A DNA stretch of 64,000 bases, taken from the IMG/VR virus record IMGVR_UViG_3300005681_000033, positions 32,001-96,000 of that record; one strand, written 5' to 3'. A model generated the notes under the pieces. It saw nothing but the letters and a program-made list of their open reading frames with translations. It was not told the DNA's origin and did not search any database. Of the stretch, positions 27,880 to 49,105 are shown piece after piece (within the stretch, counting starts at the first letter, position 1; each line of letters opens with the position of its first letter). The stretch is from a virus. The position numbers were made by a program, and so were the translations under genes.

Positions 27880-28134
27880 TTAAATCTTATATCCGAAGTG
27901 TTTTACGCCTTCGTTGAATTTTTCTTTTTGGTTCATACCTATTGCTTTCAAATGTAACCACATTACATCTTCAATTTCAGGCGCAAGGTTTAACTTTCTT
28001 TTTAATTCAACAAAGTAAGTCCTAAATTCTTCTCTCGAAGCATCTACAAGTTTTTTGGCCTGCATCTTTGCTTCGTGATTAGCTCGTCGCACTTCAGCAG
28101 GCGACAATTCTTGGGTTTCTTGTTTTTTAGCCAT
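27880..28134 (-). CDS. hypothetical protein
   Basis: coupled ORF upstream of sheath. Confidence 0.7.
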   Translation of the reverse strand: MAKKQETQELSPAEVRRANHEAKMQAKKLVDASREEFRTYFVELKRKLNLAPEIEDVMWLHLKAIGMNQKEKFNEGVKHFGYKI

Positions 28135-28889
28135 TATTTACCAGCCTTCGGTGCGATTCCCATTAGTTTTTCCACCGATTTGTTTTTTTCCATCTCAAGT
28201 TTTGGGTCTTTCTTGACTTGCTGTGCCGGTGTTTCTACCGGTGGAGCGTCGGCTAATTTAGCCGCAGCTTGCTCGTCTGAATTACCAGCTTTTTTCATTT
28301 TGCGTTGTAGCATGAATTTCTTCAGGCTTGGTCGCATTTCACCACATTTTTCAGTTTCTGATTTTGCAAATGGAGGTTTTTTATCTCCACCTACAGCAGC
28401 TTTAATCTTGTCTTCTTTACTTGAATCATCAGAAGGTTTTGATTTAGCAGCAGCGTCAATCTTTGCTTTGTGTTCGGGAGCTTCACCAGCTTCCTTGTCA
28501 CCATCAAGATCTTGTCCAGAAGCCTCTTCTTCAGCTTCCATAGCATCAGCACCATCAATATCGCCGTCGCCGTCTTTATCAGCAGCTGCCATAGCGTCAG
28601 CACCGTCTACATCACCGTCACCATCTTTATCAGCTGATGCAGGTTTAGCTTGTTTTTTTCCACCCTTACGATCTTCATGACCACCAGAGTTTTCGATGTC
28701 AGCTTCAGCCAAATAAGCAGGTGCTTCAGCATCGTCATTTGATGGCTCACCACCAGGTTCGATTTCATGAGAAGTGTTTGCTTTAGCCAATTGAGCGGCC
28801 TTAAGCATTTCGTGTGTCTTTTTAAGGACAGCAACTGCCACTTCTTGGGCTGTATAGAACTTCTCTTCATTTTTAGGTTTTTGAGCCAT
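28134..28889 (-). CDS. disordered putative head-internal protein with DxDGDGD Ca-binding repeats (start MAQKP)
   Basis: DKDGDGDVDGADA, DKDGDGDIDGADA; LAKA/FAKS/MKKA motifs; GAGGG RBS. Confidence 0.7.
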   Translation of the reverse strand: MAQKPKNEEKFYTAQEVAVAVLKKTHEMLKAAQLAKANTSHEIEPGGEPSNDDAEAPAYLAEADIENSGGHEDRKGGKKQAKPASADKDGDGDVDGADAMAAADKDGDGDIDGADAMEAEEEASGQDLDGDKEAGEAPEHKAKIDAAAKSKPSDDSSKEDKIKAAVGGDKKPPFAKSETEKCGEMRPSLKKFMLQRKMKKAGNSDEQAAAKLADAPPVETPAQQVKKDPKLEMEKNKSVEKLMGIAPKAGK

Positions 28890-28922
28890 ATTTTCCCTCA
28901 AATATTTTTTCACTTACATCCC

Positions 28923-28931
28923 TAAAGATTG
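28923..28931 (-). promoter_or_regulatory. candidate late promoter CAATCTTTA
   Basis: exact motif 34 nt upstream of ATG. Confidence 0.6.
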
Positions 28932-28964
28932 CGATTTCTTTGGGATTTTATGGTATACAATAAT

Positions 28965-29231
28965 TTATTTTTTGCGTTTTTTATGCATAAATTTCTTTAG
29001 CTTTGAAACGCCTTTCTCTTGTGATTCCGCAGACTTAGACTTGTTAACAACACCCTCTTTGGTTGCAGGAGGAATTTTATCAGGGTCAACCTGAGCTGTG
29101 TAATTTCTGTCCAAAACATCCCGAATTACTTCTTGGGCAACCTTCGGTCCACCCTTTTCTAAAGCAGCTTTGACTACCTTATAAAGAGCTTTCTCTAAGT
29201 CTGTATTTTCTTGTTCTTTTTCTGTTTTCAT
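28965..29231 (-). CDS. small putative head-internal protein
   Basis: LEKA, VVKA, LEKG, VNKS motifs; late motif 4 nt before ATG. Confidence 0.65.
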   Translation of the reverse strand: MKTEKEQENTDLEKALYKVVKAALEKGGPKVAQEVIRDVLDRNYTAQVDPDKIPPATKEGVVNKSKSAESQEKGVSKLKKFMHKKRKK

Positions 29232-29235
29232 ACAC

Positions 29236-29244
29236 TAAAGATTG
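29236..29244 (-). promoter_or_regulatory. candidate late promoter CAATCTTTA (leaderless transcript)
   Basis: CAATCTTTA-GTGT-ATG. Confidence 0.6.
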
Positions 29245-30255
29245 CTATTTTTGTTCGATTGTAACCCAAACTTCATCATCTTCTTCTGTTTGAGTGTTTT
29301 TGTTGCTTAAAATTTTAATGCCAGATTTGAATACCACACCCTCATCTCTATCAGGGTCGTTTAAATCTATAGCCTCAATAAATCGTTTTGGGGTTTTAAC
29401 CCAGCTTTCCTCTACTTGTCCAGAAAGGGTAATCCAACGAGAATAAATATTTTCTTCTTGCATCATTTCGTTTCGCATCATGTCGGTGCAGGATAAATTT
29501 GACAATTGAAAGTTATTGTATTCTAGCAGACCTTCGCGATAACGAAATAAAGAGTATTTGACAACGCTGAACAGGAAGATCAGTAAAGATGGGTCTCCAT
29601 GAGCATGACATCCAATGTTGTATTGTTCTTGAGATGTAGCTCTTTCTCTTCTGGCTCTGTAGGTTGGGTATTGTGGAATAATTACCAATTTACCCTTGGG
29701 CAGTTTAGAGCCTGCTGTAATTTGAACGCCATTGATTCCGGCCTTATCGATAATTTCAAAAGCATTGCCTGTTTTAGGATCAGCTAAAAGCATACCCTTA
29801 CCAACATATCGATATTCAGGAATATCCGTTGGAAGTTCAACGATGCCAGTATCTTTGTCATAAGAGACTGGTGTAAATGAAGAAACTATAGGTTTGATTG
29901 GCTTGCCAATTTCATTTGGCGAATAATCTTCAAAGGCAATAGATGCATCGCCTAATGTAGAAAGGCTTTTATCTTCGTTTGAATTACCGATTGAAATTGT
30001 AATGCATGGGTATTCCATCTTATCTAAACGATGGTGCATATATACAGGAATGTTTGTATTTAAAATAAATTCTTTAGCTCTGGTAATTTCTTTCATACCG
30101 TAGCGTTTAGCAAGAATTGGATTTTCATTTAAAGATGCAAAGACATCCTCTATCAACCAAGGATTTTTACGCATATCTTCTAAAGATAACTCAATTGCTG
30201 TCTTGATAATCAAGTCACCCTGAAAAATACCAATGATATCATCGTATTCTGACAT
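29245..30255 (-). CDS. putative tail terminator/tail completion protein
   Basis: position between neck genes and sheath; YPCITISIG..ED motif. Confidence 0.55.
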   Translation of the reverse strand: MSEYDDIIGIFQGDLIIKTAIELSLEDMRKNPWLIEDVFASLNENPILAKRYGMKEITRAKEFILNTNIPVYMHHRLDKMEYPCITISIGNSNEDKSLSTLGDASIAFEDYSPNEIGKPIKPIVSSFTPVSYDKDTGIVELPTDIPEYRYVGKGMLLADPKTGNAFEIIDKAGINGVQITAGSKLPKGKLVIIPQYPTYRARRERATSQEQYNIGCHAHGDPSLLIFLFSVVKYSLFRYREGLLEYNNFQLSNLSCTDMMRNEMMQEENIYSRWITLSGQVEESWVKTPKRFIEAIDLNDPDRDEGVVFKSGIKILSNKNTQTEEDDEVWVTIEQK

Positions 30256-30257
30256 GG

Positions 30258-31028
30258 TTAATCCTTTCCGTTATACTTCTCAAAAATTGCTGGAAGAATG
30301 TCTTTTTCCCAAGTTTGCATGGCCCAATCAAAAGCCTTATCGAGAATCTTATTGCCTTGTCGACCTGGGTGTACCCACAGACCTTCATTTTTATGTTTTT
30401 CGCTTATTACACGAAAGGTCATAATATCTCTGCGAACACTTCCATCTTTTTGTTTTGTTTGATAAACACTAACGCCCTTAGTTAAAGGGTTTTTGTGAAT
30501 ATCTTTTTGGGCAATTGCTCTTGGATTGTTAAATTGAAACGAATGTAATCTTCCGATTCGTGGACTTCCATCTTCATTTTTTTCAATTTTCTTCCAGGCA
30601 ACGCCCTTTTTTTTCAACTCGTACTGAATCTCTTTAGCCAAGTCATAAGCTTTGGGAGATTGTTCTGTTGGATTTTTATTATGTTTAAATGGTATAATGG
30701 CATATTTTCCATTCTTACCCTGTCTGGCAGATTTACCGTTCAGTAACTCTTCCATAAATCCAGATTTGCGACCTTCTTCAATCCACATCGCTGGTTCTTT
30801 TAAAGTAACTACCCAAAAATTTGGAGCTGGATTTGAGAATTCAACATTGTCCTTATACATTTTAGAAAGACTTGTAAGTTCTTCTGTAGCAAGTTCCAAA
30901 GTTTTAGCGTGAGTCATTGATGCAAGATTTTCTACACCCTTGGTAAGGTCTTCTTGAACATCTTTTTTAACACCGTCTAAATGCTTGGAAAGTCTTTCAA
31001 TATCAACATTAAACTTTAAATTACTCAT
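30258..31028 (-). CDS. putative neck/tail-completion protein (start MSNLK)
   Basis: WIEEG...YAIIPFKH...TFRVIS...WVHPG motifs of myophage neck/completion proteins. Confidence 0.6.
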   Translation of the reverse strand: MSNLKFNVDIERLSKHLDGVKKDVQEDLTKGVENLASMTHAKTLELATEELTSLSKMYKDNVEFSNPAPNFWVVTLKEPAMWIEEGRKSGFMEELLNGKSARQGKNGKYAIIPFKHNKNPTEQSPKAYDLAKEIQYELKKKGVAWKKIEKNEDGSPRIGRLHSFQFNNPRAIAQKDIHKNPLTKGVSVYQTKQKDGSVRRDIMTFRVISEKHKNEGLWVHPGRQGNKILDKAFDWAMQTWEKDILPAIFEKYNGKD

Positions 31029-32786
31029 CGTCTTGACTTGACTGACCAGCTTGATGTGTCGGTCGATCACCCATGTATGGTTTATGACTCTTAGATTTTC
31101 CACCCATTTTTGGATGATGTTGAGGTCTGTTTTTCAAACCAGCCTTATTGTGGTTGGTTGCAGTTGGATCGCCGTCAAAATCTTTCAAAAATCCAGTAGT
31201 TCCTTGTCTCCAGGATTCAGAGCCAGTACGACCATCGATAACTTTTAATTTACCGTGATGCACAGCACCAAGCGGCGGTTGCGGCTTGGGAATGTGTTTC
31301 GTACCCTTGTCTGGCAGGTTCTTAGGGTCTTTCGGAGCCTGCCCGTTTACTTTTTTTCAGATGGTTTTTCATCATTAGGTTGTGCATCTTGGTTAGCTGG
31401 TTGAGCTACCTGGTCTTCACCTTGATCATCAGCTTCAGGCATTGCCTCAGCCATTTGATTAGTATCAGCAGCTTGTTGCATATCTTGCTCTGGAGCAAAA
31501 CCTAATTTTTTAGCCATAGAAATCATAGAACGTAACATGGTTAATGTTGCATTATATAGATCAGGATTTTGTTCGCGTGCTTGCTCTAGCATCATTTTGT
31601 TGTCTTTGAAAGCTAACAATGCATTTGCAATATCTTGTTTCAATTCTTGATGATCAGCATCATCAGCAGAATCATCACCTTCAGGCGACATTTCATCACC
31701 TTCTTGATCATCAGACATATCGTCATGAATCATATCTGCTAATGGATCTTCGTCGCCAGAAGCTGTATCTTCAGAACTTAATTCTTGATCGTCTGAATCT
31801 TCTTCGGAGTCTTCGAACTCACCTTCATGAGGAGCATGATGACCATCAAAAGAATCATCTTCAGAATCATTATCTGGAAGGTCGTCGCTTTGGTCTGGAG
31901 CGTCTTCCATATCTGCCTCGTCTTCTTGTTGCTCACCGTCAGCCGTTCCAAAATCTTCTTCAGTTTTTCCATCGATTTCTCCGTGTTTTTGTTTAGGAGA
32001 TTTGTTTGCAGGTGCAGAATCATCAGGACTATTTAAAGCTTCTTCGTTGTCGTCGGACACATCATCCTCATTTCCAATTGGAGCTTCATCAGAATCATCA
32101 GAATCTGAATCAGCATCTTGTGCGTTAGGGTCAGCTGCTGGTGGTGTAGCAGGTGCAGGTTTATTCATAGCTTTGTTTTTTGGCATAGCTTTGTTATCTT
32201 GAATATTTGTATTTGCTTCAGCCTCTGCACCTTCTTCAGCAGGAGCTTTTGGAACAATACTGTCTTCCTCAGCACCTTCTTCTGGTGCTACTTCTTCAGC
32301 TTGTGATTCGTTATCTTCCATAGCTTGATCTTCTAGATCACCTTCAGCTGGAATTTCTGGAGCTTGGTCAATATCTTGTGATGGATCTTCATCACTAGAT
32401 TCGTCTGAAAGATAATCTTCCATATTAGGATCATAGTGAATCGTTTGATTTTTACCATTCATTTTGCCATAGATTAGGGCTTTAGAAGCCTGTGACATAG
32501 AAGCGCCCACACCAACAGTTAAACCATGACCAGACGATTCTTGATAATCTTGTCTGATGGAATCCATTTGCGCAAGAGCGTCGTCTGGAACTAAATAAAT
32601 AGCTTCATCTCCAGAGCCAGTGATTTTTTTACCACCAATTCCCTCTGCCCATTCATCGATCTTTTTGTGTGCTTGATCAATAGTAGAACTTGCGTTCGCT
32701 AAATCCTGGTGATCATCATTGGCAATTGCGTTACCAATTCTAGTACCAACATCATCTCCGTTCACCGCCAAGTAGACATTACCCAT
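31021..32786 (-). CDS. predicted -1 frameshift fusion product (~588 aa) of the mCpol-like gene with a basic 109-aa extension
   Basis: A_AAA_AAG at 31356-31350 directly before TAA; -1 frame open 31350-31021; pseudoknot 6 nt downstream. Confidence 0.7.
31303..31356 (-). promoter_or_regulatory. programmed -1 ribosomal frameshift signal (slippery heptamer + H-type pseudoknot)
   Basis: A_AAA_AAG; stem GGCAGG(31343-38)/CCTGCC(31318-13); loop ACCCT(31328-24) pairs with AGGGT(31307-03). Confidence 0.75.
31347..32786 (-). CDS. mCpol-like (minimal CRISPR polymerase / nucleotide cyclase palm) domain fused to long acidic disordered region
   Basis: YLAVNGDDVG...ND...L...S...GG..I..SGDE...LTVGVG....A.KAL..GK..GKN in first ~120 aa. 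Confidence 0.7.
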   Translation of the reverse strand: MGNVYLAVNGDDVGTRIGNAIANDDHQDLANASSTIDQAHKKIDEWAEGIGGKKITGSGDEAIYLVPDDALAQMDSIRQDYQESSGHGLTVGVGASMSQASKALIYGKMNGKNQTIHYDPNMEDYLSDESSDEDPSQDIDQAPEIPAEGDLEDQAMEDNESQAEEVAPEEGAEEDSIVPKAPAEEGAEAEANTNIQDNKAMPKNKAMNKPAPATPPAADPNAQDADSDSDDSDEAPIGNEDDVSDDNEEALNSPDDSAPANKSPKQKHGEIDGKTEEDFGTADGEQQEDEADMEDAPDQSDDLPDNDSEDDSFDGHHAPHEGEFEDSEEDSDDQELSSEDTASGDEDPLADMIHDDMSDDQEGDEMSPEGDDSADDADHQELKQDIANALLAFKDNKMMLEQAREQNPDLYNATLTMLRSMISMAKKLGFAPEQDMQQAADTNQMAEAMPEADDQGEDQVAQPANQDAQPNDEKPSEKK

Positions 32787-33324
32787 TTTGCAACTCCTTA
32801 ATTTTATTACTTTTCTTTAAATTTTCTGAAGCTGGCAAATACTGCAAATTCCAAGGAACATGCAATCCACAAACATCTGGATGATTTAAAGGAATGATAT
32901 GATCGACATGAAATCCTTTTGGACAATTGTTGTAAATATCTTTAATTTCATTCATTACATTTGTAAAAGTAGCTTTTTGAACTTTAGCTCTTCTAATACT
33001 TGCTTTATAAGCAATTTTACTTTTGTTATTTGAAGCCCATTGTTTTTCTCTAGCTCTATACTTTTCTTTATTTGCTAAATAATAGTTTTTACGATACTCA
33101 AGTATTTCTGGCTTGATTGCAATCAATCTTGAATATTCTTTCATTTTTGAAATACCATAGTCACTTGATCTATATTTTTTATCTGCTTTGGATTGCCAAG
33201 ATTTTACCTTATCTTTATTCCTTGCTCTATATTGTTTTTGATAAGTATAATGACAAGTTTTACACCATCTCTGTGTAAACTCTGTTAGATTTTTCTCTAC
33301 TTTGCATTTCGTACATTTTTTCAT
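32779..33324 (-). CDS. HNH homing endonuclease
   Basis: N-terminal CxxC pairs; HVDHIIPL...CGLHVPWNLQYL...N. Confidence 0.85.
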   Translation of the reverse strand: MKKCTKCKVEKNLTEFTQRWCKTCHYTYQKQYRARNKDKVKSWQSKADKKYRSSDYGISKMKEYSRLIAIKPEILEYRKNYYLANKEKYRAREKQWASNNKSKIAYKASIRRAKVQKATFTNVMNEIKDIYNNCPKGFHVDHIIPLNHPDVCGLHVPWNLQYLPASENLKKSNKIKELQNG

Positions 33325-34214
33325 TTTTTAGCTCTCAAAGCCTCTAAAAGCATTTCTACATTTTCAATATCAAAATTTTTAGGAAATTTGATTTTTACGG
33401 TACCATCTACATTTTTCATAATTTTGATAGACTTGGCCATAAATTCACCGTAGCAAATACACGGAATAATTTCTTCTGATTCTTTTTTATGAATTGTGGT
33501 TTTACAATCTGGACATTTAACATCTTCACTCTTGTCCATTTCTACAGACTCTTGACGCTTTTTTTCTAAATTGTCAAGGAATTGTCGCAACTTACTCTTT
33601 TTATTATCTTCCATTGGCGTTTCTTCCTTTGGTTCAGGCTTTTCTTGTACAGATTCAAAATGACTATGTAATCTTGCCTGAATCATCTTTTGAATAGCCT
33701 CTCGTTCAGAGATACGCTTATCAACCACATCCTTAATCATGTTGTGCATCATTAAACGTTGATCGATCAGGTCTTGTAGTTTATCGATTTTTTGTTGTTC
33801 TGGTTCAGAAGGTTCTTTTTTAAGATCTTCGATTTTATCTAAATCATAAAGCTCAAATACACTTAATAAAATTAAGCCAATTGAAGGAAGAGATCTATGA
33901 TAGAATTCATATTTGACCTTACCTTCTTGTGTAATATTACCACTGTAGTTGTCAGCACCAAGTTTGTTAACATGAAGTTTTGCACCAAGTGCCCATGGAA
34001 TATCTAAGTCAGCAATGTCATTAGCCGATAAATGCTTAAGATTAAAGAATAGAAACGACAAAACTGCTCGTGGAACAATCTCCAGAGCTACTCTGATTTC
34101 TTCGGGTTGTAGAGCCGTCTTAGTTTCTGGTTTATAAATCGCTGATTTTTTCAATTCATCGAATATATCTTTACCTAGAATACTTTTGACGATTTTGACG
34201 TCTTTAAGTTTCAT
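33321..34214 (-). CDS. putative head-associated protein with C-terminal Zn ribbon
   Basis: IVKS, LKKS, MDKS, MAKS motifs; CPDC...CIC. Confidence 0.6.
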   Translation of the reverse strand: MKLKDVKIVKSILGKDIFDELKKSAIYKPETKTALQPEEIRVALEIVPRAVLSFLFFNLKHLSANDIADLDIPWALGAKLHVNKLGADNYSGNITQEGKVKYEFYHRSLPSIGLILLSVFELYDLDKIEDLKKEPSEPEQQKIDKLQDLIDQRLMMHNMIKDVVDKRISEREAIQKMIQARLHSHFESVQEKPEPKEETPMEDNKKSKLRQFLDNLEKKRQESVEMDKSEDVKCPDCKTTIHKKESEEIIPCICYGEFMAKSIKIMKNVDGTVKIKFPKNFDIENVEMLLEALRAKK

Positions 34215-34216
34215 TT

Positions 34217-34681
34217 TTAATCTCTAATGCGTGTATACTCAATACTTGAATCGTCATCGATTAAAAAACCAGCAACAGAAATAGCATTGTGCCATCGACC
34301 AGTGGAAACAACAGAATTAGCAGGACATGGAATTGCTGCAATAACATCAGGCGCTACATTTTTCCATTTTGCAGAATCAAAAGTGCCAGTGATTGCATCT
34401 TGCATGGCTAAGTATACAAAACCACCTTGAGTAACAACGTCGCCTTGTTGATAGGTTCTAGCCGAATCATACGCCTTACCAAGCATTGAAAGAGTGTAAG
34501 GACCAGCAGCAATTAGAATTAATTTACCAGCTCCAACAGGCTCGTTTGCTGAATAAGCACGCGCAGGTGTAGGTTGAACCACAATAACTTTGTCAGCTCC
34601 AACAGCGTCGTTGTATTTAATAGCATCAATAGCACCTAAGTCTTGGTTTGTATTGACACTTCTATTTGGTTTCTTTGCCAT
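34217..34681 (-). CDS. virion protein with CBM5/12-like carbohydrate-binding module
   Basis: YDSARTYQQGDVVTQGGFVYLA......W; AGGAG RBS. Confidence 0.65.
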   Translation of the reverse strand: MAKKPNRSVNTNQDLGAIDAIKYNDAVGADKVIVVQPTPARAYSANEPVGAGKLILIAAGPYTLSMLGKAYDSARTYQQGDVVTQGGFVYLAMQDAITGTFDSAKWKNVAPDVIAAIPCPANSVVSTGRWHNAISVAGFLIDDDSSIEYTRIRD

Positions 34682-34704
34682 GTTCAAATCTCCTAATTAT
34701 ACCT

Positions 34705-34713
34705 TAAAGATTG
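34705..34713 (-). promoter_or_regulatory. candidate late promoter CAATCTTTA
   Basis: exact motif in short intergenic gap. Confidence 0.6.
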
Positions 34714-34725
34714 TCATTTAGATGG

Positions 34726-40786: not shown

Positions 40787-40809
40787 ACGCCTCTAGTGTA
40801 ACATAAAAG

Positions 40810-41637: not shown

Positions 41638-42059
41638 TAGCAAGACCCCACGTTAAGAAGGCTTGCCGAAACCCCACCCTTAACAAGGATGTTTTTTTCA
41701 TTAGCATCTTCAGTTAGTTTGATTTTAAAGTTTCCAGATTTAGGCAATTGAGCATCTGTTAAATCAAATTTCCAAATACTTTTGTCATCTGCAAATGGTT
41801 GCGTTCCAATAATAACCAAAACATCTGCATCGTCAATCGATGGGAATGTTGCTTCCGCACCAATAGTGGTTCCTTGAGGGATGTATCTCATAGGATGTTC
41901 AGGCAGTGCAACAGATTTATCTGGTCCAGGGACTTTGTCCAAATCAACCAATTGGACGTAAATTTCGTTAGCTTGGCCTTCTTGGACAGATGCAGAGTTT
42001 GCATACTCCCAATTGTTTACATTGGCTACATTTTTAAGAACTTTGGCACTTAATCGCAT
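41637..42059 (-). CDS. putative virion protein, beta-rich (start MRLSA)
   Basis: AGGAG RBS, late motif upstream, TAATG coupling to adaptor gene. Confidence 0.6.
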   Translation of the reverse strand: MRLSAKVLKNVANVNNWEYANSASVQEGQANEIYVQLVDLDKVPGPDKSVALPEHPMRYIPQGTTIGAEATFPSIDDADVLVIIGTQPFADDKSIWKFDLTDAQLPKSGNFKIKLTEDANEKNILVKGGVSASLLNVGSC

Positions 42060-42087
42060 AAAATTTAGGCTCCTTTGAGGTCTTCTA

Positions 42088-42096
42088 TAAAGATTG
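42088..42096 (-). promoter_or_regulatory. candidate late promoter CAATCTTTA
   Basis: exact motif, back-to-back with an extended -10 on the + strand. Confidence 0.6.
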
Positions 42097-42119
42097 CAAT
42101 TTTTGTGGTAATATAGGGT

Positions 42120-42737
42120 ATGGCAAGACCACTCAAAATTATCAGTATTGACGGTACTAAAGGTTCTGGAAAGACCAGTCAAATCGGCATGTTAGCTCGT
42201 TTATTTAAGGACAATTCCATCCCTTGTTTAGTTGTTCAAGCCGGTAGGGATATTGCCACTGGACAGGTTTCTATACAAAAAATTCGTACTTTTGTCTCTG
42301 AAAACCCCAATGGAGTCGCTATTTTAGATGGTTCTATTGCTAGAATGATGGTTGCCGATCTCATGATTGGAAAGGCCAAAGAGAAGGTGATCGACGAATA
42401 TAAGTATCTAACTCATGATTATGAAAGGCTAGATCATGAATTTGGAATTGCTTCATTTTTGATGATTATGGACGATCTAAAAGAGGGCGAACGTCGACTT
42501 GTCAAAAGAAAGGCTTTGCTCGGAATTGAGGCTGAAGAGTACGACCCAGGATATGAGGCTGATATTGTAAATGGTATGCGTTTTTTTAACAATCACGTGG
42601 CTTCCAAAAACATGACGTTTCGTATCATTGATATTGAAAATGAAGACACAATGATGCAAATTCACAAAAAAATTATGGATTCATTGTCTAACAACTATGA
42701 GTTGCCAGAGCTTAAAAAGGATAAAAACGATTGGTAG
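42120..42737 (+). CDS. thymidylate-kinase-like P-loop nucleotide kinase
   Basis: IISIDGTKGSGKTSQ Walker A, AILDG strand; canonical DR arginine absent. Confidence 0.7.
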   Translation: MARPLKIISIDGTKGSGKTSQIGMLARLFKDNSIPCLVVQAGRDIATGQVSIQKIRTFVSENPNGVAILDGSIARMMVADLMIGKAKEKVIDEYKYLTHDYERLDHEFGIASFLMIMDDLKEGERRLVKRKALLGIEAEEYDPGYEADIVNGMRFFNNHVASKNMTFRIIDIENEDTMMQIHKKIMDSLSNNYELPELKKDKNDW

Positions 42738-43318
42738 AGTTGTCACAAGATACTATTTTTAAGCTTGGAGTTATGCTGGACAATGAAGTCTTACGTGATG
42801 AAATTGTTTCTCGCCTTACTTGTTTTGGTGAGCCAATTAGAACAATGGAACAAGCCAATGCCATTGGTGAAACGACCTTTGCACAGTTTGATGATAAGAT
42901 CACTCAGGTATTTAAAACTAAAATGGCTAATTATGACCATGGTGAGTGTGGCCTAGAAATCGCCAAGGGATTGAATGGCTGTCTTAAAGTTCTTGAACAG
43001 GCCAAGGCCGGACAAACACCTAATATCCAAGAGTTAATGGGTGAAAAAATGGATAAGGTGGCATTTGAAGCCTTAATCCTTGCCCTAGCTAGTAATCAGG
43101 CTGCTAAAGAATTTAGAAAAGCTTATGATAAAATGTTTGATAGTCTTGTAAATATCAATCTTATTTCTACAACCAAAGCTTTATCACCCGAATATGACTA
43201 TATTCCACCTCATATTTTAGTGAACGCTAAAACTGACAAAATTCACAAAGAGACCTCTAAACCACGACCTGTGGACCCAAAACGTATCAAAAGAATACGC
43301 TTAAAAAAAGATAATTGA
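42731..43318 (+). CDS. hypothetical protein
   Basis: 195 aa ORF overlapping kinase stop. Confidence 0.65.
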   Translation: MVELSQDTIFKLGVMLDNEVLRDEIVSRLTCFGEPIRTMEQANAIGETTFAQFDDKITQVFKTKMANYDHGECGLEIAKGLNGCLKVLEQAKAGQTPNIQELMGEKMDKVAFEALILALASNQAAKEFRKAYDKMFDSLVNINLISTTKALSPEYDYIPPHILVNAKTDKIHKETSKPRPVDPKRIKRIRLKKDN

Positions 43319-43348
43319 TTTTTCTATCAGATCTGTTATTATTATCCT

Positions 43349-43537
43349 ATGGAAACAAATGTAACTTATATCAATAGTAAAAAACCGCTGACGCGTGATG
43401 ATATGGCTAAATTATTGCGTATTTTAAGAGAAAGAGAGCAATCAACACCAAATCCTTTACTTAAGGATTGGTTTGTAATTCGTAATCAAATTAGACAATT
43501 AGAAAAAGAAATCAACAAAACAAGGAGATCTTTATGA
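43349..43537 (+). CDS. hypothetical protein (apparently leaderless)
   Basis: TG-T-TATTAT 6 nt before ATG. Confidence 0.6.
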   Translation: METNVTYINSKKPLTRDDMAKLLRILREREQSTPNPLLKDWFVIRNQIRQLEKEINKTRRSL

Positions 43538-43815
43538 CAGACACACAACAAAAATTTTTAGAAATCTCAAAGCGATATGAAGCTCTTAAAGAAGAAATGA
43601 AGGCTTTAAAACCTACTCTTCAAGAGTTGATGACTGAATTAAAAGTTGGAACTCATTTTCAAGACCCAGAAACACAACTTGTTTATCGCATTGAAGTTCC
43701 GACTGGAACTTATGTGTCTTTTGACCCTATCACTTACACTCGTACTAAAAAGGTTGGCGAGGATAAAGGTTCTTTGGCTAAGAGTGAAGCTCAAAAGCTT
43801 GGATATAATATCTAA
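43534..43815 (+). CDS. hypothetical protein
   Basis: AGGAG RBS. Confidence 0.7.
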   Translation: MTDTQQKFLEISKRYEALKEEMKALKPTLQELMTELKVGTHFQDPETQLVYRIEVPTGTYVSFDPITYTRTKKVGEDKGSLAKSEAQKLGYNI

Positions 43816-44207
43816 TTATTCATCCAGTATTTTAATGCAATGTTGTGTTGGATAGGCACGTGCAAATCTGACACAACATAATTTGGATTCATATAGTGCC
43901 ATGAATCTACCTCTTTGTCCGGGTCTTTCGATGCATCTAACATTTGCTTTGGGTCTGGGGTCACATGGAACAAATACAATAAAAGATTTTGTTCTTTATC
44001 CCAATGCGAAGCAACAAGCTTGATATCTTCTACATCCAAACCTGTTTCTTCTTTTAGTTCTCTAATAGCACCTTCATATGGATCTTCGCCCTCATTCAAG
44101 TGTCCACCCGGAACTGTCCATTTTTTATTGTCGTTGCGAACGCCCATTAAGATATTATCGCTATGATCTGTTAATAGACAAATTGCAACTCTTCGCGAAT
44201 TAGCCAT
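43812..44207 (-). CDS. Nudix hydrolase
   Basis: Nudix box GGHLNEGEDPYEGAIRELKEETGL. Confidence 0.92.
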   Translation of the reverse strand: MANSRRVAICLLTDHSDNILMGVRNDNKKWTVPGGHLNEGEDPYEGAIRELKEETGLDVEDIKLVASHWDKEQNLLLYLFHVTPDPKQMLDASKDPDKEVDSWHYMNPNYVVSDLHVPIQHNIALKYWMNN

Positions 44208-44212
44208 TTATC

Positions 44213-46333
44213 CTACTTCTTTTTTTCGTTTTTGTAAAGAAATTCAGATTTGGCAATTTTCATTTTTGGCTGTGCCTGTGGCATTTCTGGTTGAGCAGGC
44301 ATTGGAGCTGGTTGATTTTGAGCTACCGGTTGTTGTGTAGGCATTGGAGCTGGACGCGGTTTCATTCGCACTACATTTGGAGGCAATTCTTGCTGCATTT
44401 GTGGTTGAACGGCTTGTTTTTTAGCTTGTCTATCCAACACAGCACCTGGCTGCCTATTTGTAATAGCAGCGTCTAAGGTTCTGTCTGCCTTAGACCATCC
44501 TTTATCTGGGTGAAATTTCATTTGACCACTAAAAATAGCATGTAATCGTGCTTTGTTTTCAGGAGAAAGGTTTCTCGCTTGACGAATTAAATCGACATAC
44601 TTTTCCTTTTTGCCTGGAACCTTAACACGAGTGGCAATCACCTTATTTGGATCTTCAACGGAAGTTCTCTGAGGTGCATTTTTATCCTTTACTGGAATTG
44701 ACACCTGACTTGCTGGCATCCCAAGAAAACGACGAATCAACTGCTCTGCAGCCATTGGTTGCACTTCACCTTGAGATCGTTTTTGTTGCATATATCCATA
44801 TTGCTTTTGAACATCCGAATATTGCTTATCCATTAAACGCTGTCCATCTTCAAGACTAACACCTTCAGGCATTAACATTAAATGTGCAATTTCATGAACA
44901 ATTGCTTCAGGATTCCATTGAGCTTCGAATTTACCTGAACGCCAATCTGGTTTATCCACACCAATTTCATTGTCTGCTTTTCTACGCTCACCTGTCTTGT
45001 CGTTTACCTTACCACCTGATGGTTGCAAATCAAGACCTAAAAACTTATCAACGAATTTTTTGATATGATTGATGTGCTTATCACGCATTGCAGATTTCGC
45101 TGCAGGTTGAGAATTGGTTCCAAATACCTTTTTACGTTGTTCGCGTACATTTTTAGAGGCTTTGTTAATATCTGAGTGTCCAAGCTTACGAACAATAACA
45201 AATTCAGATTTAACAACATCGACTTCAGACTTAGGAAGGTTTGGTTTTGGCATATCTTTCAATTCTTTCAATTTTCTAGAATGCATTTGACGTGCAACTT
45301 GTTTTTGTCTTTCTTTTCCACCAGATTTAATAGGTGTTTTTTTATTACTTCCTGCGATAGCCATGACACCAGCTCTACTATGAGTTCCAGTCCCAACATC
45401 CGACGTATGAACTCCCTTTAAATCTTTTGCCAATGCGTCACCCTGTACTTTTTCAGATGAAACTCCAGCACCACAAGACGCAACAAGAGCTTTACGAACA
45501 TTTGAATCGTATTTACTAAGCTGTTTTTTCTCGTTCTTTTGCCATGCTGGTTTCATTTTTGGCATTTTACCGTAAATTTGAGTGCCAGTTTTGGCTTTTG
45601 GTTCAGCTGCATAATTGATTTTATCACCAACGTGCATAGTGCTCGGAGCATTTTTTGGACTGAAGATGCGTTTAGGGATACGACCACTTCCAGGAGGAGA
45701 ATTCAAATCTGCTTTGTAAATGAAAGGAATCTCACCTTTCATGATTTGACACGAAGCTTCGTCTGCTTTAGACATAACATCTTGAATAAATGCAAATTTA
45801 CCAGAATCTGACTGTTTTTGGGCTTTGTCGTCTACTTTCAATTCGTAAGCTTCACAAACTTTATTGCAAGGAGTCAAAGTAACAGATACTTTTCTTGCAA
45901 TACATTTTGTAATAATAGCACCTTGTTTTTCAACACGAGAGCCTTCGATAGAAAAATTGATTAGTTTTTTGGCTTCTTTGTTAAGAGGTGTCATTTGGTC
46001 GTACTTGAGCATTGCAGCTACTTCACTAGCAGCTTTGTGACCAACCGAATCAAATAATTCACCAGCAACATAAATAAAAGGCATTTTAAGCTTATCCCAA
46101 AATTCCTTTTGATGTTCATTTTCGCAATCAGAGCGTTTTAAGATTTTCTTGGCTTCCCAAATCTTACCTACAATAGAAGAAGGGCTTTTAGAGTCATGTT
46201 CGTAGTTAAAAGTTCCATCTTTTGTAAGACTTGTAATATCTACGCCTTCAATTTGAATACGTTCGCCAGAACTATCTAAGTGTTCTGAGGCAGCGATGCC
46301 ATGAATGAAAGTTCCACGTTTTTGATCAGACAT
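44213..46333 (-). CDS. prohead (capsid maturation) protease with long C-terminal extension containing an HExxH domain
   Basis: GIAASEHLDSSGE..NYEH..VG..FSIEG..VSVT..P.N in first ~165 aa; HEIAH at aa 480-484. Confidence 0.8.
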   Translation of the reverse strand: MSDQKRGTFIHGIAASEHLDSSGERIQIEGVDITSLTKDGTFNYEHDSKSPSSIVGKIWEAKKILKRSDCENEHQKEFWDKLKMPFIYVAGELFDSVGHKAASEVAAMLKYDQMTPLNKEAKKLINFSIEGSRVEKQGAIITKCIARKVSVTLTPCNKVCEAYELKVDDKAQKQSDSGKFAFIQDVMSKADEASCQIMKGEIPFIYKADLNSPPGSGRIPKRIFSPKNAPSTMHVGDKINYAAEPKAKTGTQIYGKMPKMKPAWQKNEKKQLSKYDSNVRKALVASCGAGVSSEKVQGDALAKDLKGVHTSDVGTGTHSRAGVMAIAGSNKKTPIKSGGKERQKQVARQMHSRKLKELKDMPKPNLPKSEVDVVKSEFVIVRKLGHSDINKASKNVREQRKKVFGTNSQPAAKSAMRDKHINHIKKFVDKFLGLDLQPSGGKVNDKTGERRKADNEIGVDKPDWRSGKFEAQWNPEAIVHEIAHLMLMPEGVSLEDGQRLMDKQYSDVQKQYGYMQQKRSQGEVQPMAAEQLIRRFLGMPASQVSIPVKDKNAPQRTSVEDPNKVIATRVKVPGKKEKYVDLIRQARNLSPENKARLHAIFSGQMKFHPDKGWSKADRTLDAAITNRQPGAVLDRQAKKQAVQPQMQQELPPNVVRMKPRPAPMPTQQPVAQNQPAPMPAQPEMPQAQPKMKIAKSEFLYKNEKKK

Positions 46334-46368
46334 TTTAGACCTTTGTGATAGAAAGTGATTTTACATCT

Positions 46369-46377
46369 TAAAGATTG
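46369..46377 (-). promoter_or_regulatory. candidate late promoter CAATCTTTA
   Basis: exact motif upstream of protease. Confidence 0.6.
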
Positions 46378-46574
46378 TGTTTTAGTCAACAAATCACCCT
46401 AAATACTTAAAAACACTAGGTTTTGGTTTTTTATTTTGGGAAGATTTGGTTTTCCAAAACTGAATAAAATCAATAGGTTAGACCTATAAAAGGTCAAAAA
46501 TACTAATCATTTACCTTGTATTGACGATTCAAAACGTCTAGGGCATAAATCAACCAATTTTTGGAGGAAAAACT

Positions 46575-46970
46575 ATGAAATCACTTGCAAAAGCTGATGC
46601 ATTGGCTCGTGGCTTAAAAGAACGTCTTCAATTCCGTGGCTATTCAGTCGCTGAATCAAGAGACGCTGAAGGCTGGCCAAAGCTAACACTTAACACTAAC
46701 GAAGCTTCATTGAAGATCGTTGCTGCTGACGCAGTTTCTAAAGATATTTTTGGAAACAGTCTAGTTGCTTTCGCACCACACAAAGTTGAATTCGCTTCTC
46801 GTGACGATGCTATGAGCACGTTAAAAGTAGCTCAAATTCAAACTGAACTTGTTAAATGTGGAATCGAAAAGCAAATCGTAAAAACCCACGCTACTGTTTT
46901 GGCTACTGCCGAAGCTGCTGCTGGAACTGAAATCAATTTTGATGTTCAATGGCCTACTAAGGGCGTTTAA
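46575..46970 (+). CDS. putative head protein (capsid-associated)
   Basis: strong GGAGG RBS, biased codon usage like the capsid gene, first gene of capsid operon, N-terminal LAKA. Confidence 0.6.
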   Translation: MKSLAKADALARGLKERLQFRGYSVAESRDAEGWPKLTLNTNEASLKIVAADAVSKDIFGNSLVAFAPHKVEFASRDDAMSTLKVAQIQTELVKCGIEKQIVKTHATVLATAEAAAGTEINFDVQWPTKGV

Positions 46971-46995
46971 TTAACACTGGAAGGAGTGCATATTT

Positions 46996-47709
46996 ATGAA
47001 GAAAAAATATTCTGATAAAGATATGGCCGCTCTGATTGGTGAAATTGAAACTCATTTCAACACTGTGTTGAAGTCACAAACTGAACCAACAGATCTTAAA
47101 AAATCTGAAGAAGCAAATGAAGTAAAAGTTGAGGAAACTCAAGTAGCTACACCTGCTCCTACTGAATTTGGTTACGACGAAAAAGACATTCAAGAAATGA
47201 ACGAAATGTATTCATCTATGACAAAATCTGAAGCTAAAGCTCACTTTGAAGCTCTGAAAGCTGCCCACTTTCAAGAAACTCAAGAAGCTCCTGCTAAAGA
47301 AGAGGTTATTGCTAAGTCTGAAATCAAAGAAGTTCAAGCTTCTGAAAACGACGAAACAAAACTTTTAAAGTCAGAAATTGAAACACTGAAATCAGAAAAA
47401 GAAAAACTGGAAAAATCATTTAACGATCTAACTGCAAAATTGATTGCGTTTGTTAAAGGCTCTAAAGCTCCAAAGCAAAAAGCCGTTACTCAATTGCAAT
47501 ATGTAGCAAAATCTGAAGATGAGGTTAAGGTTGAAGAGAAAAAAGAAGATGTGTCTAAATTAGACAAAACTGAAATTTCTCGAAGACTTACTGCTCAAAT
47601 CCGTTCTGGAAAACTAGAAAAAAGCGAGCGCGAAAAAATCAACAATTTCTACCAATCAGGTAGTAAAAATATTGAGTCTATTAGACATCTATTAACAGGA
47701 GGAAACTAA
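46996..47709 (+). CDS. capsid scaffolding protein
   Basis: E/K-rich coiled coil directly before capsid gene; nine xxKS motifs. Confidence 0.75.
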   Translation: MKKKYSDKDMAALIGEIETHFNTVLKSQTEPTDLKKSEEANEVKVEETQVATPAPTEFGYDEKDIQEMNEMYSSMTKSEAKAHFEALKAAHFQETQEAPAKEEVIAKSEIKEVQASENDETKLLKSEIETLKSEKEKLEKSFNDLTAKLIAFVKGSKAPKQKAVTQLQYVAKSEDEVKVEEKKEDVSKLDKTEISRRLTAQIRSGKLEKSEREKINNFYQSGSKNIESIRHLLTGGN

Positions 47710-47710
47710 A

Positions 47711-49105
47711 ATGGTCGAACAACTAAACGATCTATTAAAAGCCCTTGAAGCAGGTTCATACAACGCTGCTCCAGGTCAGCTTGTACAAGGAGCTGCGTTG
47801 CAGGTGGAAGATCTTTCTCCTGTGATGGAAAACGTCACTTTTGACGACAGCCACATCAAACTTCAGAAGATGCTTAGCATTAAAGATGCAAAAAGCACTC
47901 TGATCCAATTCAACCGTCAGCTTGACTACGGTATTTTCGGCGGATCTGCTCAGTATGAAGGCGGAATCGGTGAAGAAGATACATCGAACTACGTTCGTGC
48001 TATCGTTCCAATGGCTTACTACAGCACAACTCGACGAGTTTCTGTTGCAGCTAACCTAATTGGTGCAGTAGATGGTAAAAAAGCGGAAGATAGATCAGCT
48101 TCTGATGCTGCTATGAAACTTTCTGCGGATATCGAATTCGATTCTTTCCGTGGACAAGCAGATTTCAGCAATGCTGGTATTTTCGATGGTAACCCAAATG
48201 CTATCGCTGATATCCCTAACATGGTTGGTGTTGATGCTCAAATCCGTATGTCTGACAGCTTGTCAAACACACAAGATTTGATGTTTGCTGAATACGGTTC
48301 AGATCAAACAGTTATCGTTTCTGTAAACGGAACTTTGACTCAAACTTCAATCGAAGATATGTCAGTTAAATCTGCAATGCAACATGGTTCTGCAGATAAA
48401 TTAATTCTTGACCCAATTTCTTTAAGTGCTTACAACAAAATTGCTTTTGCAAAAGAGCGTATCATGTTGTCAGGTTCACCTCAAGAAGCTACTGGTGCTG
48501 AGTTGAGAAAACAATGGACAAGCTCTGCTCTTGTTTCATTAGAGCCTTCTCGTTTCCTTTCTGGAAAAACTCGCCCTGCACGTTCTCGCGCTGGTTCTCC
48601 TGCGGCTCCTGCTACTTTAACAAGTGCTGCTGCTGCTAACCCTGCTTCTAACTTGGCTGCTGGTACATACGTGTACAAAGCAACTGCAGTTAATGAGCGT
48701 GGTGAGTCAGTTGAGAAAGTTGATGATGGTGGAGCACAAGCTGTTGCCGCTGGTGAAGCTGTTACTTTAACTATCGCTCCTGTTTCTGGTGCTAAATACT
48801 TTAACGTATATCGTTCTGAAGACGGTGGAAGCGCAGCTTCTGCAAAATTCATCGGTAAAGTTAAGGCTGCTGGTTCTGGTAATACTTCTTTCATCGACCT
48901 TGGCAATCGCCGACCTGGTTCTGTTACTGGATTCTTAATCCAAGCTAACACAATGGGTATGCACCAATTGTCTCCATATAGCCGATTGAAATTAGCTCTT
49001 AGTGACTTGTCACTTCCAGAAGCTCACTTCCGATTCCTTTGCTTGGCTGCTTACCAACCACGCAAAAACGTATTGGCTGAGAACATCGAAGGTCAGTTAT
49101 CTTAA
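47711..49105 (+). CDS. major capsid protein (Herelleviridae A511/K-like)
   Basis: LLKA..G...G.AL..E.L...T.....ST..Q..R...G....E.G; IE..SF.G; C-terminal FN3-like Y.YK.TAVN..GES..YFNVYR. Confidence 0.88.
   Translation: MVEQLNDLLKALEAGSYNAAPGQLVQGAALQVEDLSPVMENVTFDDSHIKLQKMLSIKDAKSTLIQFNRQLDYGIFGGSAQYEGGIGEEDTSNYVRAIVPMAYYSTTRRVSVAANLIGAVDGKKAEDRSASDAAMKLSADIEFDSFRGQADFSNAGIFDGNPNAIADIPNMVGVDAQIRMSDSLSNTQDLMFAEYGSDQTVIVSVNGTLTQTSIEDMSVKSAMQHGSADKLILDPISLSAYNKIAFAKERIMLSGSPQEATGAELRKQWTSSALVSLEPSRFLSGKTRPARSRAGSPAAPATLTSAAAANPASNLAAGTYVYKATAVNERGESVEKVDDGGAQAVAAGEAVTLTIAPVSGAKYFNVYRSEDGGSAASAKFIGKVKAAGSGNTSFIDLGNRRPGSVTGFLIQANTMGMHQLSPYSRLKLALSDLSLPEAHFRFLCLAAYQPRKNVLAENIEGQLS

Follow-up and report, generated by a model that had tools for sequence, protein, structure and literature searches.

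The annotated record of Listeria phage A511 has the mature capsid protein (Cps) beginning after ...EDALK/S (Lys23; slashes mark the bond cut or predicted to be cut), which bears out an earlier statement, in the preliminary description of the sequence studied here, that capsid proteins of this type mature by cleavage after Lys in a KS site. The internal proteins of T4 have a capsid-targeting sequence and are cleaved by gp21 (PMC9026906, PMC9958956), internal or ejected head proteins of SPN3US are processed by the prohead protease (PMC10052503), and DarA of the phage P1 Dar system is cut by the prohead protease Pro (PMC12810830). Polyvalent proteins, found in phages and conjugative elements, are predicted to be packaged in the virion (Iyer, Burroughs, Anand, de Souza and Aravind 2017; PMC5512222).

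The window analysed here, 64,000 nucleotides long, comes from an uncultured, Mx1-like myovirus (166.8 kb) that is related to Myxococcus phage Mx1, and includes its head and neck region. A hydrophobic-x-K-[SAG] motif had been reported in several of its proteins, and every listed occurrence was found in the sequence. The proposal that this motif is the site of the prohead protease is very probably correct, given the position of the capsid copy on the A511 cleavage site, the presence of an A511-type protease homologue and the conserved islands and junctions described below.

Capsid, protease and scaffold

The major capsid protein (464 aa; 47711-49105, plus strand; phrog_752, E 4e-44) is 52% identical to the Mx1 capsid protein. 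A full-length BLASTP alignment with A511 Cps (E 4e-16) placed K10/A11 on K23/S24. The predicted maturation site is thus L8-L9-K10/A11 (DLLK10/A11; 47732-47743, plus), and the capsid sequence L[LMVI]KALEAG is near-invariant across 46 relatives. In the portal (56975-58771, plus; phrog_12, E 1.7e-21), the exact form of the N-terminal candidate site, DMMK42/S43 (57092-57103, plus), is kept as MMK42/S only in the two nearest relatives, while most relatives have L-x-K/[SA] somewhere in this variable part of the N-terminus, as does Mx1 with LAK47/SE.

A prohead serine protease domain (45839-46333, minus strand; phrog_1028, E 8.6e-7) makes up residues 1-165 of a 706-aa protein. Comparison of 31 clade protease sequences with the A511 protease using hhalign gave a probability of 97.5% (E 8e-12), and the invariant H46 and S128 (FSIEG) fell on NFEH and FSIEG of A511. 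K/[SAG] with a hydrophobic P3 residue is found in the tail at 189, 199, 207, 281, 368, 375, 391 and 695. The first three, MSK189/A, IMK199/G and IYK207/A (45707-45775, minus), are clustered directly after the protease domain and are candidate self-release sites; after this domain most relatives have D-x-[IL]-F-K-[STGA]-E or similar, and A511 has ETFMK/SW. The last, IAK695/SE (44243-44257, minus), is C-terminal.

Between them, LPK368/S and VVK375/S (45155-45238, minus) lie upstream of an HExxH cargo domain (residues about 392-640; 44414-45160, minus) that is entered by INK391/A. The H-E-x-x-H residues were invariant in the alignment, and in six of six contexts the domain starts directly after [IML]xK/[ASG](S)KNVREQR. 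The same domain was found in separate proteins of 814-860 aa in L033 and L036. Since the protease tail contains this invariant HExxH domain, and embedded metallopeptidases have been proposed by Iyer et al. as the processors of polyvalent proteins (PMC5512222), the sites might be read by another protease, either this domain or a host enzyme. We consider this very unlikely. The domain was not found in seven of ten complete or near-complete relatives, Mx1 included (a positive control matched in three), the scaffolds of relatives that do not have it still carry the motif, and A511 has the K/S site with no second protease annotated among its head genes.

The scaffold (237 aa; 46996-47709, plus) was assigned by position and composition. 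It has exactly nine KS, at residues 26, 36, 77, 107, 125, 132, 140, 172 and 209, seven of which are KSE, and cutting at all nine is predicted to leave pieces of at most 41 aa. When the order of these residues was examined in the scaffolds of 38 relatives, KSE was found 184 times and each of the five other orders 4-26 times. A logo of 275 KS sites had L, M or I at P3 in 72% and E at P2' in 67%. In the relatives LAKSE, LLKSE and IAKSE form conserved islands within hypervariable acidic linkers, and the scaffold of the cultivable Mx1 has four motif sites where 0.26 are expected.

The scaffold, a protein that has to bind the shell, carries the motif at its highest density, and L-x-K-S-E could instead be a binding or structural repeat that makes scaffold or capsid-interior contacts and also recruits cargo, as in the earlier idea that the motif doubles as a packaging signal. 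A role of this kind appears improbable, as the copy in the capsid protein falls exactly on the cleavage site annotated for A511, the protease domain is followed by a copy here and in A511, and the motif is in predicted disordered linkers. In addition, P2 is free and P3, P1, P1' and P2' are fixed, the pattern typical of protease subsites. Nothing pointed to a packaging signal, and the fusion to the protease or the N-terminal leader shared by large late proteins (see below) are better candidates for targeting to the head.

Frequency of the motif across the genome

Expected counts were obtained from 400 within-protein shuffles, which control for Lys content. In its loose form the motif was found nine times in the scaffold (1.8 expected) and 39 times in the other ORFs at 27880-46970 (21.6 expected), counts reached in none of the 400 shuffles. 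The protease protein was marginal (9 against 5.2 expected; 31 of 400 shuffles), and neither the capsid and portal (7 against 4.4) nor the 1314-aa protein described below (8 against 6.2) was significant in the 400 shuffles. The shuffles gave no excess for the rest of the genome (233 against 224.5). The loose motif is enriched for the region as a whole, unevenly: with Lys content controlled, enrichment held for the scaffold and the other ORFs at 27880-46970 and failed for the capsid, the portal and the 1314-aa protein, which are not singled out by counts. The mild excess also reaches unlikely cargo, such as two HNH endonucleases.

The strict form, [LIVMF]xKSE, was found 14 times in the region, approximately 20-fold above the approximately 0.7 expected, and twice, against 4.4 expected, in the 46,205 residues outside it. 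Controls with Arg replacing Lys, or with the motif reversed, were flat. The residue at P3 is hydrophobic in 15 of the 16 KSE in the region and in 2 of 10 elsewhere. With linkers rich in K, S and E, and several of the per-protein counts not significant, composition might yield the pattern by chance and without function. This explanation was tested and rejected for the scaffold and the region as a whole, and is extremely unlikely overall: the excess of KSE over the other residue orders is approximately 13-fold for scaffolds, 2.6-fold for protease orthologues and 3.5-fold for cargo proteins, the P3 preference differs between the region and elsewhere, and the shuffles and controls agree.

Several smaller ORFs carry the motif. 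The 177-aa two-domain protein of ORF 35604 (35604-36137, minus), the gene for which usually adjoins the transglycosylase gene in relatives, has IFK75/SE between its domains (35907-35921). Among 19 orthologues, P1 is always K, P2' is always E, P3 is hydrophobic in nearly all and P2 is free, with S at P1' in 17, A in one and N in one. Two ORFs at 28134-29231 (minus), 28134 (259 aa, acidic) and 28965 (88 aa), encode candidate core or scaffold-like proteins. The first includes FAK184/SE (28356-28370, minus), the second has four loose-motif sites where 0.7 are expected, and the peptide KCGEM also occurs in scaffolds of relatives. The sequence GCAATCTTTA is found upstream of both. RCAATCTTWW, found 11 times against 3.6 expected, is directly upstream of the protease gene, the operon of the adaptor and the 1314-aa protein, and ORFs 35604, 34217, 28965 and 28134, which hints that these genes may be co-expressed. 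ORF 33321 (297 aa; 33321-34214, minus), for which family searches found no family, has MDK228/SE (33525-33539, minus) and three further loose-motif sites. The N-terminal SLAK6/AD (46584-46598, plus) of ORF 46575 (131 aa; 46575-46970, plus) is a weaker fit, as P3 is mostly Thr in the N-terminus M.KS[TL]AK[AS]E kept in 32 relatives; this family had no KSE excess in the order test.

Module junctions in a large late protein

The 1314-aa multi-enzyme late protein (36842-40786, minus) is encoded among the neck genes, upstream of the sheath gene. It consists, in order, of an MYKK. leader, a SAM-lyase fold, a poorly modelled module, domain B, two R-S-ExE domains, a hydrophobic segment and a transglycosylase. 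The SAM-lyase fold (40337-40726, minus) was recognised using Foldseek (8bb1_E, E 8.7e-4, TMt 0.60) and by a structural match to 7ock_L (Z 9.7, rmsd 4.2, 127 aligned), with Pfam PF23780 below cut-off (E 7.6e-5). For the lytic transglycosylase fold (36857-37309, minus), the best 30 Foldseek matches were all lytic transglycosylases (top E 8.6e-3). Domain B (38885-39559, minus) has no function assigned. The R-S-ExE domains (38189-38806 and 37532-38158, minus), which had no Pfam or PDB sequence match and a predicted structure with pLDDT of about 30, may be ADP-ribosyltransferases, a reading based on the motif only.

Motif sites in this protein include 169, 318, 660, 876 and 1115. VKK169/SE (40274-40288, minus) is at the junction of the SAM-lyase module and the next module; K169/S170 lies in a linker (154-174, pLDDT <50) directly after a confident domain (21-150), and the homology breakpoints of relatives fall nearby, at about 156-164. 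LKKREIIMMK660/GA (38801-38833, minus) precedes the first R-S-ExE domain, a second copy of this junction includes K876/G (38153-38185, minus), and a degenerate third copy ends with LQK1115/GD before the transglycosylase module (37436-37480, minus). Identity between the repeats is 21/30 at the junction and 41% across the entire repeat. In 163 copies of the R-S-ExE domain from 150 public cluster representatives, P3 was L in 130, P1 was K in 147 and P1' was G in 161, and L-x-K/G precedes the domain in about 80-99% of copies. This L-x-K-G could be merely a conserved piece of that domain.

Among relatives, cargo modules have been shuffled: they turn up both in large late proteins and in the tail of the protease, to which domain B, for example, is fused in L010 and L046. 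Across the clade cargo network, the motif was within 15 aa of homology breakpoints in 69 of 286 cases against 34 expected and controls were flat, an enrichment of only about 2-fold for which z-scores are overstated because the sequences are related. The corresponding ratio in other proteins was about 1.

The protease may act only on the capsid, scaffold and protease proteins, and the large proteins may work uncut, like ordinary polyvalent proteins, either in association with the neck or tail or outside the virion. In that case the motifs at the junctions would reflect the composition of linkers passed on with the cassettes. The location of the 1314-aa gene, its lack of a loose-motif excess and the modest junction enrichment fit this account, and some polyvalent proteins, such as N4 vRNAP, are delivered unprocessed (PMC5512222). 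We view it, including a neck or tail location for the 1314-aa protein, as possible but somewhat unlikely, since relatives carry identical modules fused to the protease itself, the strict motif far exceeds expectation in the region with flat controls, and the motif borders cassettes across very diverse public proteins.

Predicted processing and comparison with known systems

The A511-type (Herelleviridae-like) prohead serine protease at the start of the 706-aa protein most likely cleaves on the C-terminal side of the Lys of [L/M/I/V]-x-K/[S>A,G,N]-(E). Inside the prohead, the capsid protein would first lose 10 residues, the scaffold would then be reduced to peptides small enough to leave the shell, and the protease would be released from its own C-terminal tail. 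Cuts at the same motif between modules of this tail and of the 1314-aa protein would yield the SAM-lyase-like domain, the HExxH domain, domain B, the two R-S-ExE domains and a membrane-anchored transglycosylase. The freed enzymes would remain in the head because they are too large to escape, and would then exit with the DNA. The analysis shows homology, the statistics of the motif, where the junctions lie and that modules are shuffled; the cuts, a location in the head and injection are all inferred. We consider it plausible, on balance, that cargo proteins are loaded into the head and cut there. In this clade the modules act like cassettes that travel together with their motif. They are exchanged between the tail of the protease and a chassis protein in which the leader at the N-terminus is conserved and the C-terminal module is a transglycosylase. 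This leader, MYKK.[IL]..[IL]K, is a candidate targeting sequence. By analogy, the SAM-lyase-like module suggests an anti-restriction use similar to that of P1 Dar.

Head maturation in A511 and the Herelleviridae is one of the most similar known systems: the protease domain and capsid are homologous, the predicted cleavage position (hydrophobic-x-K/small) is the same, the scaffold is KS-rich (A511 gp85 has eight) and a motif copy directly follows the protease domain (gp84). However, the A511 protease has 264 aa and no enzyme cargo, no motif-punctuated multi-enzyme proteins are annotated in the A511 head module, and the A511 propeptide is 23 aa, against a predicted 10 aa here. Polyvalent proteins likewise combine several unrelated enzyme domains in one late virion-linked polypeptide, with extensive domain shuffling, similar modules (lysozyme-type, NUDIX in Mx1, ART-like and zincin-like) and predicted delivery with the DNA (PMC5512222). 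Processing by embedded metallopeptidases was proposed for them (PMC5512222), whereas here the motif at the junctions matches the probable site of the prohead serine protease, that protease itself carries fused cargo and the clade can dispense with the HExxH domain.

T4 IPI-III and Alt are also head-packaged, protease-processed and injected, include an ADP-ribosyltransferase and have a short N-terminal leader, but they are single proteins, each cut once at the N-terminal end and after Glu (PMC9026906, PMC9958956), whereas here cuts after Lys are predicted wherever two modules of a long chain meet. In P1 Dar, anti-defence proteins become part of the head as it is assembled and are processed by the prohead protease, but as separate gene products on the inner capsid surface rather than motif-punctuated chains (PMC12810830). 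In phiKZ and SPN3US (gp175 and gp245), one short-motif prohead protease processes itself, the capsid, the portal and numerous proteins that are internal or ejected, with multiple cuts in long propeptides (PMC10052503). Those cuts follow a three-residue motif (P3-P2-P1) and mostly remove N-terminal propeptides (PMC10052503), whereas here P1 is Lys, the protease belongs to another lineage and the cuts are predicted to release entire enzyme modules.

The lysine motif and the prohead protease

The source virus record (166,783 bases, of which the window is bases 32001–96000) is rated complete. A megablast search found no near-identical phage record, and among named phages Myxococcus phage Mx1 comes closest (capsid identity 52%). 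Comparisons were made with 45 related loci from IMG/VR (handles beginning with L). The loose motif [LIVMFYW]xK[SAG] had been reported as shared across the head genes, and every listed occurrence was found in the sequence. When lysine content was controlled by 400 within-protein shuffles, the motif did exceed background, so that the preliminary description was not refuted on this point, but the enrichment was uneven. The scaffold (46996–47709, + strand, assigned from position and composition) contains nine copies against 1.8 expected, and the other ORFs between 27880 and 46970 contain 39 against 21.6, and in both cases 0 of 400 shuffles reached the observed count. The protease protein gave a marginal result, nine copies against 5.2 (31 of 400 shuffles reached it). 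The remaining sets were not significant: eight against 6.2 in the 1314-aa protein (36842–40786, − strand), seven against 4.4 in the capsid (47711–49105, + strand) and portal (56975–58771, + strand) together, and 233 against 224.5 in the rest of the genome.

A sharper motif was derived from the scaffolds of relatives, not from the window, and thus from independent data. KSE occurs 184 times in 38 distinct scaffold sequences, and each of the five other orders of these residues only 4–26 times. The same order is in excess in protease orthologues (56 against 8–29) and in relatives of the 1314-aa protein (33 against 5–16); the capsid, portal, adaptor and ORF46575 families show none. Leu, Met or Ile fills P3 in 72% of 275 KS sites and Glu fills P2' in 67%; no residue is fixed at P2, where Ala is frequent. 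In the scaffold alignment LAKSE, LLKSE and IAKSE form conserved islands amid otherwise unalignable acidic linkers. In the window genome, [LIVMF]xKSE was found 14 times in the region of these genes, where 0.7 were expected; the rest of the genome, 46,205 residues, has two copies (4.4 expected). Controls with Arg for Lys or with the motif reversed were flat. The possibility that composition alone yields the motif is excluded by the order test and these controls.

The prohead protease domain occupies the first ~165 residues of a 706-aa protein (44213–46333, − strand). A profile of this domain from 31 clade sequences matched the protease of the Listeria phage A511 (hhalign probability 97.5%, E 8e-12, 138 columns). 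The match to phrog_1028 (E 8.6e-7) covered residues 2–49 only, and Pfam returned no family at E ≤ 0.01. All 31 sequences have H46 (N-x-E-H) and S128 (F-S-I-E-G), which fall on NFEH and GFSIEG of A511; we infer a catalytic role for both.

The A511 record annotates the mature capsid protein Cps as starting after ...EDALK23/S (/ marks the cut), which bears out the earlier statement that this capsid is cut after Lys in a KS site. Full-length alignment of the window capsid to Cps (E 4e-16) puts K10/A11 exactly on K23/S24, and L[LMVI]KALEAG is near-invariant in the capsids of 46 relatives. The alignment predicts that the window capsid is cut near its N-terminus, following the Lys of K10/A11. A511 also resembles the clade in having a motif copy (ETFMK/SW) directly after the protease domain; the clade site is D-x-[IL]-F-K-[STGA]-E, and the window has MSK/A, IMK/G and IYK/A. 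The A511 scaffold contains eight KS. Cutting at all nine KS of the window scaffold would leave peptides of at most 41 aa, the fate expected of a scaffold.

Taken together, the A511 annotation, the capsid alignment, the protease homology and the specificity of the motif indicate that the motif is very probably the prohead protease site, as the preliminary description proposed. Nothing was found in favour of its further suggestion that the motif may be a packaging signal, or of a binding role; such a function is improbable. The exact match to the A511 cut site favours cleavage. The sites do not follow the T4-type rule of cleavage after Glu in (L/I)-x-E; Lys is conserved at the A511-aligned P1, and the protease is of the A511 type, not the gp21 type. 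A different protease, namely the HExxH domain in the tail of the protease protein, might read the sites. Of 10 complete or near-complete relatives, 7 lack this domain, Mx1 among them (the positive control worked), and the scaffolds of relatives without it still bear the motif; both points argue against this rival.

Modules of the late proteins and their junctions

The 1314-aa protein combines in one chain a SAM-lyase fold, a lytic transglycosylase fold, two R-S-ExE domains and domain B (phrog_3170). Residues 21–150 (model pLDDT >90) matched T3 SAM lyase in Foldseek (8bb1_E, E 8.7e-4, probability 1.0, TMt 0.60), and VIA-align gave 7ock_L (Z 9.7, rmsd 4.2, 127 aligned) and 6zm9_A (Z 5.6), the next unrelated rows scoring 4.8 or less. 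The modelled structure thus points to the phage SAM lyase fold of the T3 SAMase type. As the score for PF23780 (23.1 bits, E 7.6e-5) is below the gathering cut-off of 28, the module is named SAM-lyase-like and not a family member. For the C-terminal ~150 residues (~1160–1310, pLDDT 85–96), the top Foldseek rows were all lytic transglycosylases (Cj0843, Slt70, MltE and phiKZ gp144). This module starts with a Glu-Ser motif (I-E-S-S in the window, clade consensus V-E-S-S-G-G-K-N), and the model assigns it to the lytic transglycosylases of the Slt/MltE type, with a lysozyme-like fold.

The R-S-ExE domains carry, in order, the Arg, Ser and Glu-x-Glu signature of R-S-E ADP-ribosyltransferases. H-R-G, S-W-T and E-H-E are retained in both repeats and in the related locus L036, and R73, S95, E174 and E176 vary little or not at all across 20 members of the family. 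Over the repeats, the AlphaFold model (residues 651–1100) reached a pLDDT of ~30, alignment depth being insufficient. A word-indexed homologue search in the 118–378 aa range found none, an Atlas look-up gave weak leads only, and neither Pfam (10 short members) nor PDB sequences (family profile) gave a match. With the fold not modelled and no known family matched, 'ADP-ribosyltransferase' is a motif-level guess. The profile matched 434 clusters at E ≤1e-3 among 1.84 billion representatives (102 at ≤1e-30). The family is without a Pfam entry and lies nearly always inside proteins of 500–2400 aa, often in 2–4 copies. Ahead of 163 copies of the domain, P3 is L in 130, P1 is K in 147 and P1' is G in 161, and KSE often stands six residues upstream. 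The L-x-K/G is consistent with a junction site, though not decisive, as it could be integral to the domain.

The HExxH domain had no match in Pfam or PDB sequences and is therefore not placed in a metallopeptidase family. Domain B (residues ~410–634) was not among the fold matches listed for the multi-domain model, a list that one domain can fill, which has no bearing on its novelty.

Comparison across the clade revealed one pool of modules feeding both the protease tail and the large late proteins. In L010 and L046 the protease tail carries domain B as a fusion, and small proteins contain it in L022, L024, L033, L043 and L045. The HExxH domain of the window tail is found in the protease tails of L003, L004 and L035 and in separate proteins of 814–860 aa in L033 and L036. 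A leader, MYKK.[IL]..[IL]K, and the C-terminal transglycosylase frame a protein of 321 aa in L014 and of ~485 aa in L015 and L045, and the 1314-aa protein is, judging by this architecture, an enlarged form of the same chassis. The leader, a candidate for a targeting peptide of the T4 kind, precedes differing cargo domains in the window, L007, L011, L014, L015 and L045, and the window copy has no motif immediately after it. No common C-terminal anchor was found in the protease tails, whose ends are diverse. A small Cys-containing module (...SFCARM.G.KGPTSKDG.LTPKGAALKRW.C) is present at or near the C-terminus of several of the relatives' tails (L004, 5369–8026; L033, 6534–8486; L030, 6828–8720; L035, 6001–8583), and we take it to be a further shuffled cassette. 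A stand-alone NUDIX gene (131 aa; 43812–44207, − strand) lies beside the protease gene. Mx1 has a 1479-aa late protein annotated as a NUDIX hydrolase (L002, 24404–28843), and phrog_15528, a portal fusion, also has a match to NUDIX. NUDIX looks like another movable module.

Junction sequences such as ...MKK/SE, MFK/SE, MEK/AE, FEK/SE and LEK/SE recur in the relatives, and Mx1 has KK/SELMEK/A. In the cargo network, the refined motif occurred within 15 residues of homology breakpoints 69/286 times (34 expected) and the loose motif 129/286 times (82 expected); the sequences are related and z-scores are inflated, but the direction is clear. Controls were flat and the ratio was ~1 in proteins other than the cargo network. 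The test is informative because these sets were separated; on all proteins, scaffolds included, the excess was only 1.3-fold. The HExxH cassette starts directly after [IML]xK/[ASG] in 6 of 6 contexts. In the ORF35604 family (19 orthologues), the motif between the two domains has K and E in 19 of 19 and Ser at P1' in 17 of 19, with P3 hydrophobic in nearly all and P2 free. In the 1314-aa protein, K169/S170 falls within a linker (154–174) with pLDDT <50. Internal translation starts at the two LKKREIIMMKGA junctions were considered and rejected, as nothing resembling a Shine-Dalgarno sequence precedes the ATG ATG, in contrast to real gene starts here.

Gene neighbourhood and a candidate late promoter

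The multi-enzyme genes are located among head and neck genes and have an upstream motif in common. Other genes assigned in the window are the sheath (25699–27861, − strand), a head-tail adaptor-like gene (40810–41643, − strand) and the terminase (54030–55913, + strand). The upstream motif, RCAATCTTWW, has 11 sites between 22954 and 61951 (3.6 expected; 0 of 100 shuffles reached 11). Sites immediately precede the protease gene, the operon of the adaptor and 1314-aa protein, two further virion genes, and ORFs 35604, 34217, 28965 and 28134. In all, 8 of the 11 sites have such a position ahead of a virion or cargo gene, which fits a phage late promoter.

Several neighbouring genes were recorded. 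A phage-encoded GroEL-like chaperonin (51866–53623, + strand; phrog_5725, E 1.8e-92) lies between the capsid block and the terminase gene. The first ~117 residues of a 479-aa late protein (31347–32786, − strand) match the mCpol (minimal CRISPR polymerase) domain (PF18182, E 1.3e-9, above cut-off) and are followed by a very acidic tail of ~250 aa; in Mx1 a 'nucleotide cyclase' is annotated near the protease gene. Two HNH/endonuclease VII-like genes (32779–33324 and 36201–36845, both − strand; phrog_1035, E ~1e-18) are within the neck and cargo block, the latter between the transglycosylase-ending gene and ORF35604, which directly adjoin in six relatives. A basic C-terminal ...LKKFM... tail is common to the small late ORFs 28134–28913 and 28965–29231 (both − strand). 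In ORF28134 there are, in addition, two Asp/Gly-rich repeats (DKDGDGD.DGADAM) and the peptide KCGEM, found in several relatives' scaffolds too.

Proposed head loading and delivery, and known systems

The preliminary description proposed that several polyproteins are loaded into the head and cut into separate effectors for injection. We lean slightly towards the first part, head loading and cleavage of the large proteins. The main alternative confines cleavage to the capsid, scaffold and protease and does not count the big proteins as head cargo; the fusion of big-protein modules to the protease in relatives speaks to some extent against it. Injection of the cut products is conceivable, and we regard it with some doubt. 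In the fullest form of the cargo reading, the motif would bound plug-and-play cassettes, carried by the protease tail or by the leader-to-transglycosylase chassis, and a domain between two L-x-K/S-E linkers would enter the prohead, be cut free and be injected. That this amounts to a general, evolvable delivery platform for anti-defence enzymes at DNA entry is speculative and, as a whole, rather unlikely. If true, the platform would be at the disposal of a large clade of uncultured phages and of the more than 400 R-S-ExE protein clusters.

Should the cuts prove real, the head-borne proteins of Mx1-like phages and their cut points would be predictable from a short sequence rule, and several orphan domains, including the family of more than 400 clusters without a Pfam entry, would gain a first functional context. 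For SAM lyase and like enzymes this would suggest activity as soon as the DNA enters, not after early transcription, and prohead-protease biology would be joined to the polyvalent-protein literature. The cultivable phage Mx1, for which a genome announcement but no proteomics was found in the literature, carries the same motif in its proteins, and the idea is directly testable there. In Mx1 the capsid Lys aligned to window K10 stands in ...LRK/AMEAG, and the portal has a candidate site at LAK47; the protease protein is 1239 aa long and a protein labelled 'kinase' 619 aa.

Prohead proteases are known to process internal or ejected head proteins in T4 (PMC9026906), SPN3US and phiKZ (PMC10052503) and P1, with Dar (PMC12810830). 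Multi-enzyme polyvalent proteins are predicted to be packaged, and their embedded metallopeptidases have been proposed as processors (PMC5512222). The late proteins described here resemble polyvalent proteins (Iyer et al. 2017) in having at least two unrelated effector-type domains in one polypeptide (the 1314-aa protein, with the protease protein adding HExxH), and in being mosaic, with the same domains recombined in relatives and chassis of 321 (L014), ~485 (L015, L045) and 1314 aa (window). The claim to novelty is a purely computational one and concerns a variant on known head-protein processing. Relative to T4, SPN3US/phiKZ, P1 Dar and the polyvalent proteins, the new elements would be a predicted Lys-specific protease of the A511 type, cargo fused to the prohead protease, and a protease motif at each junction of long chains whose modules are shuffled.
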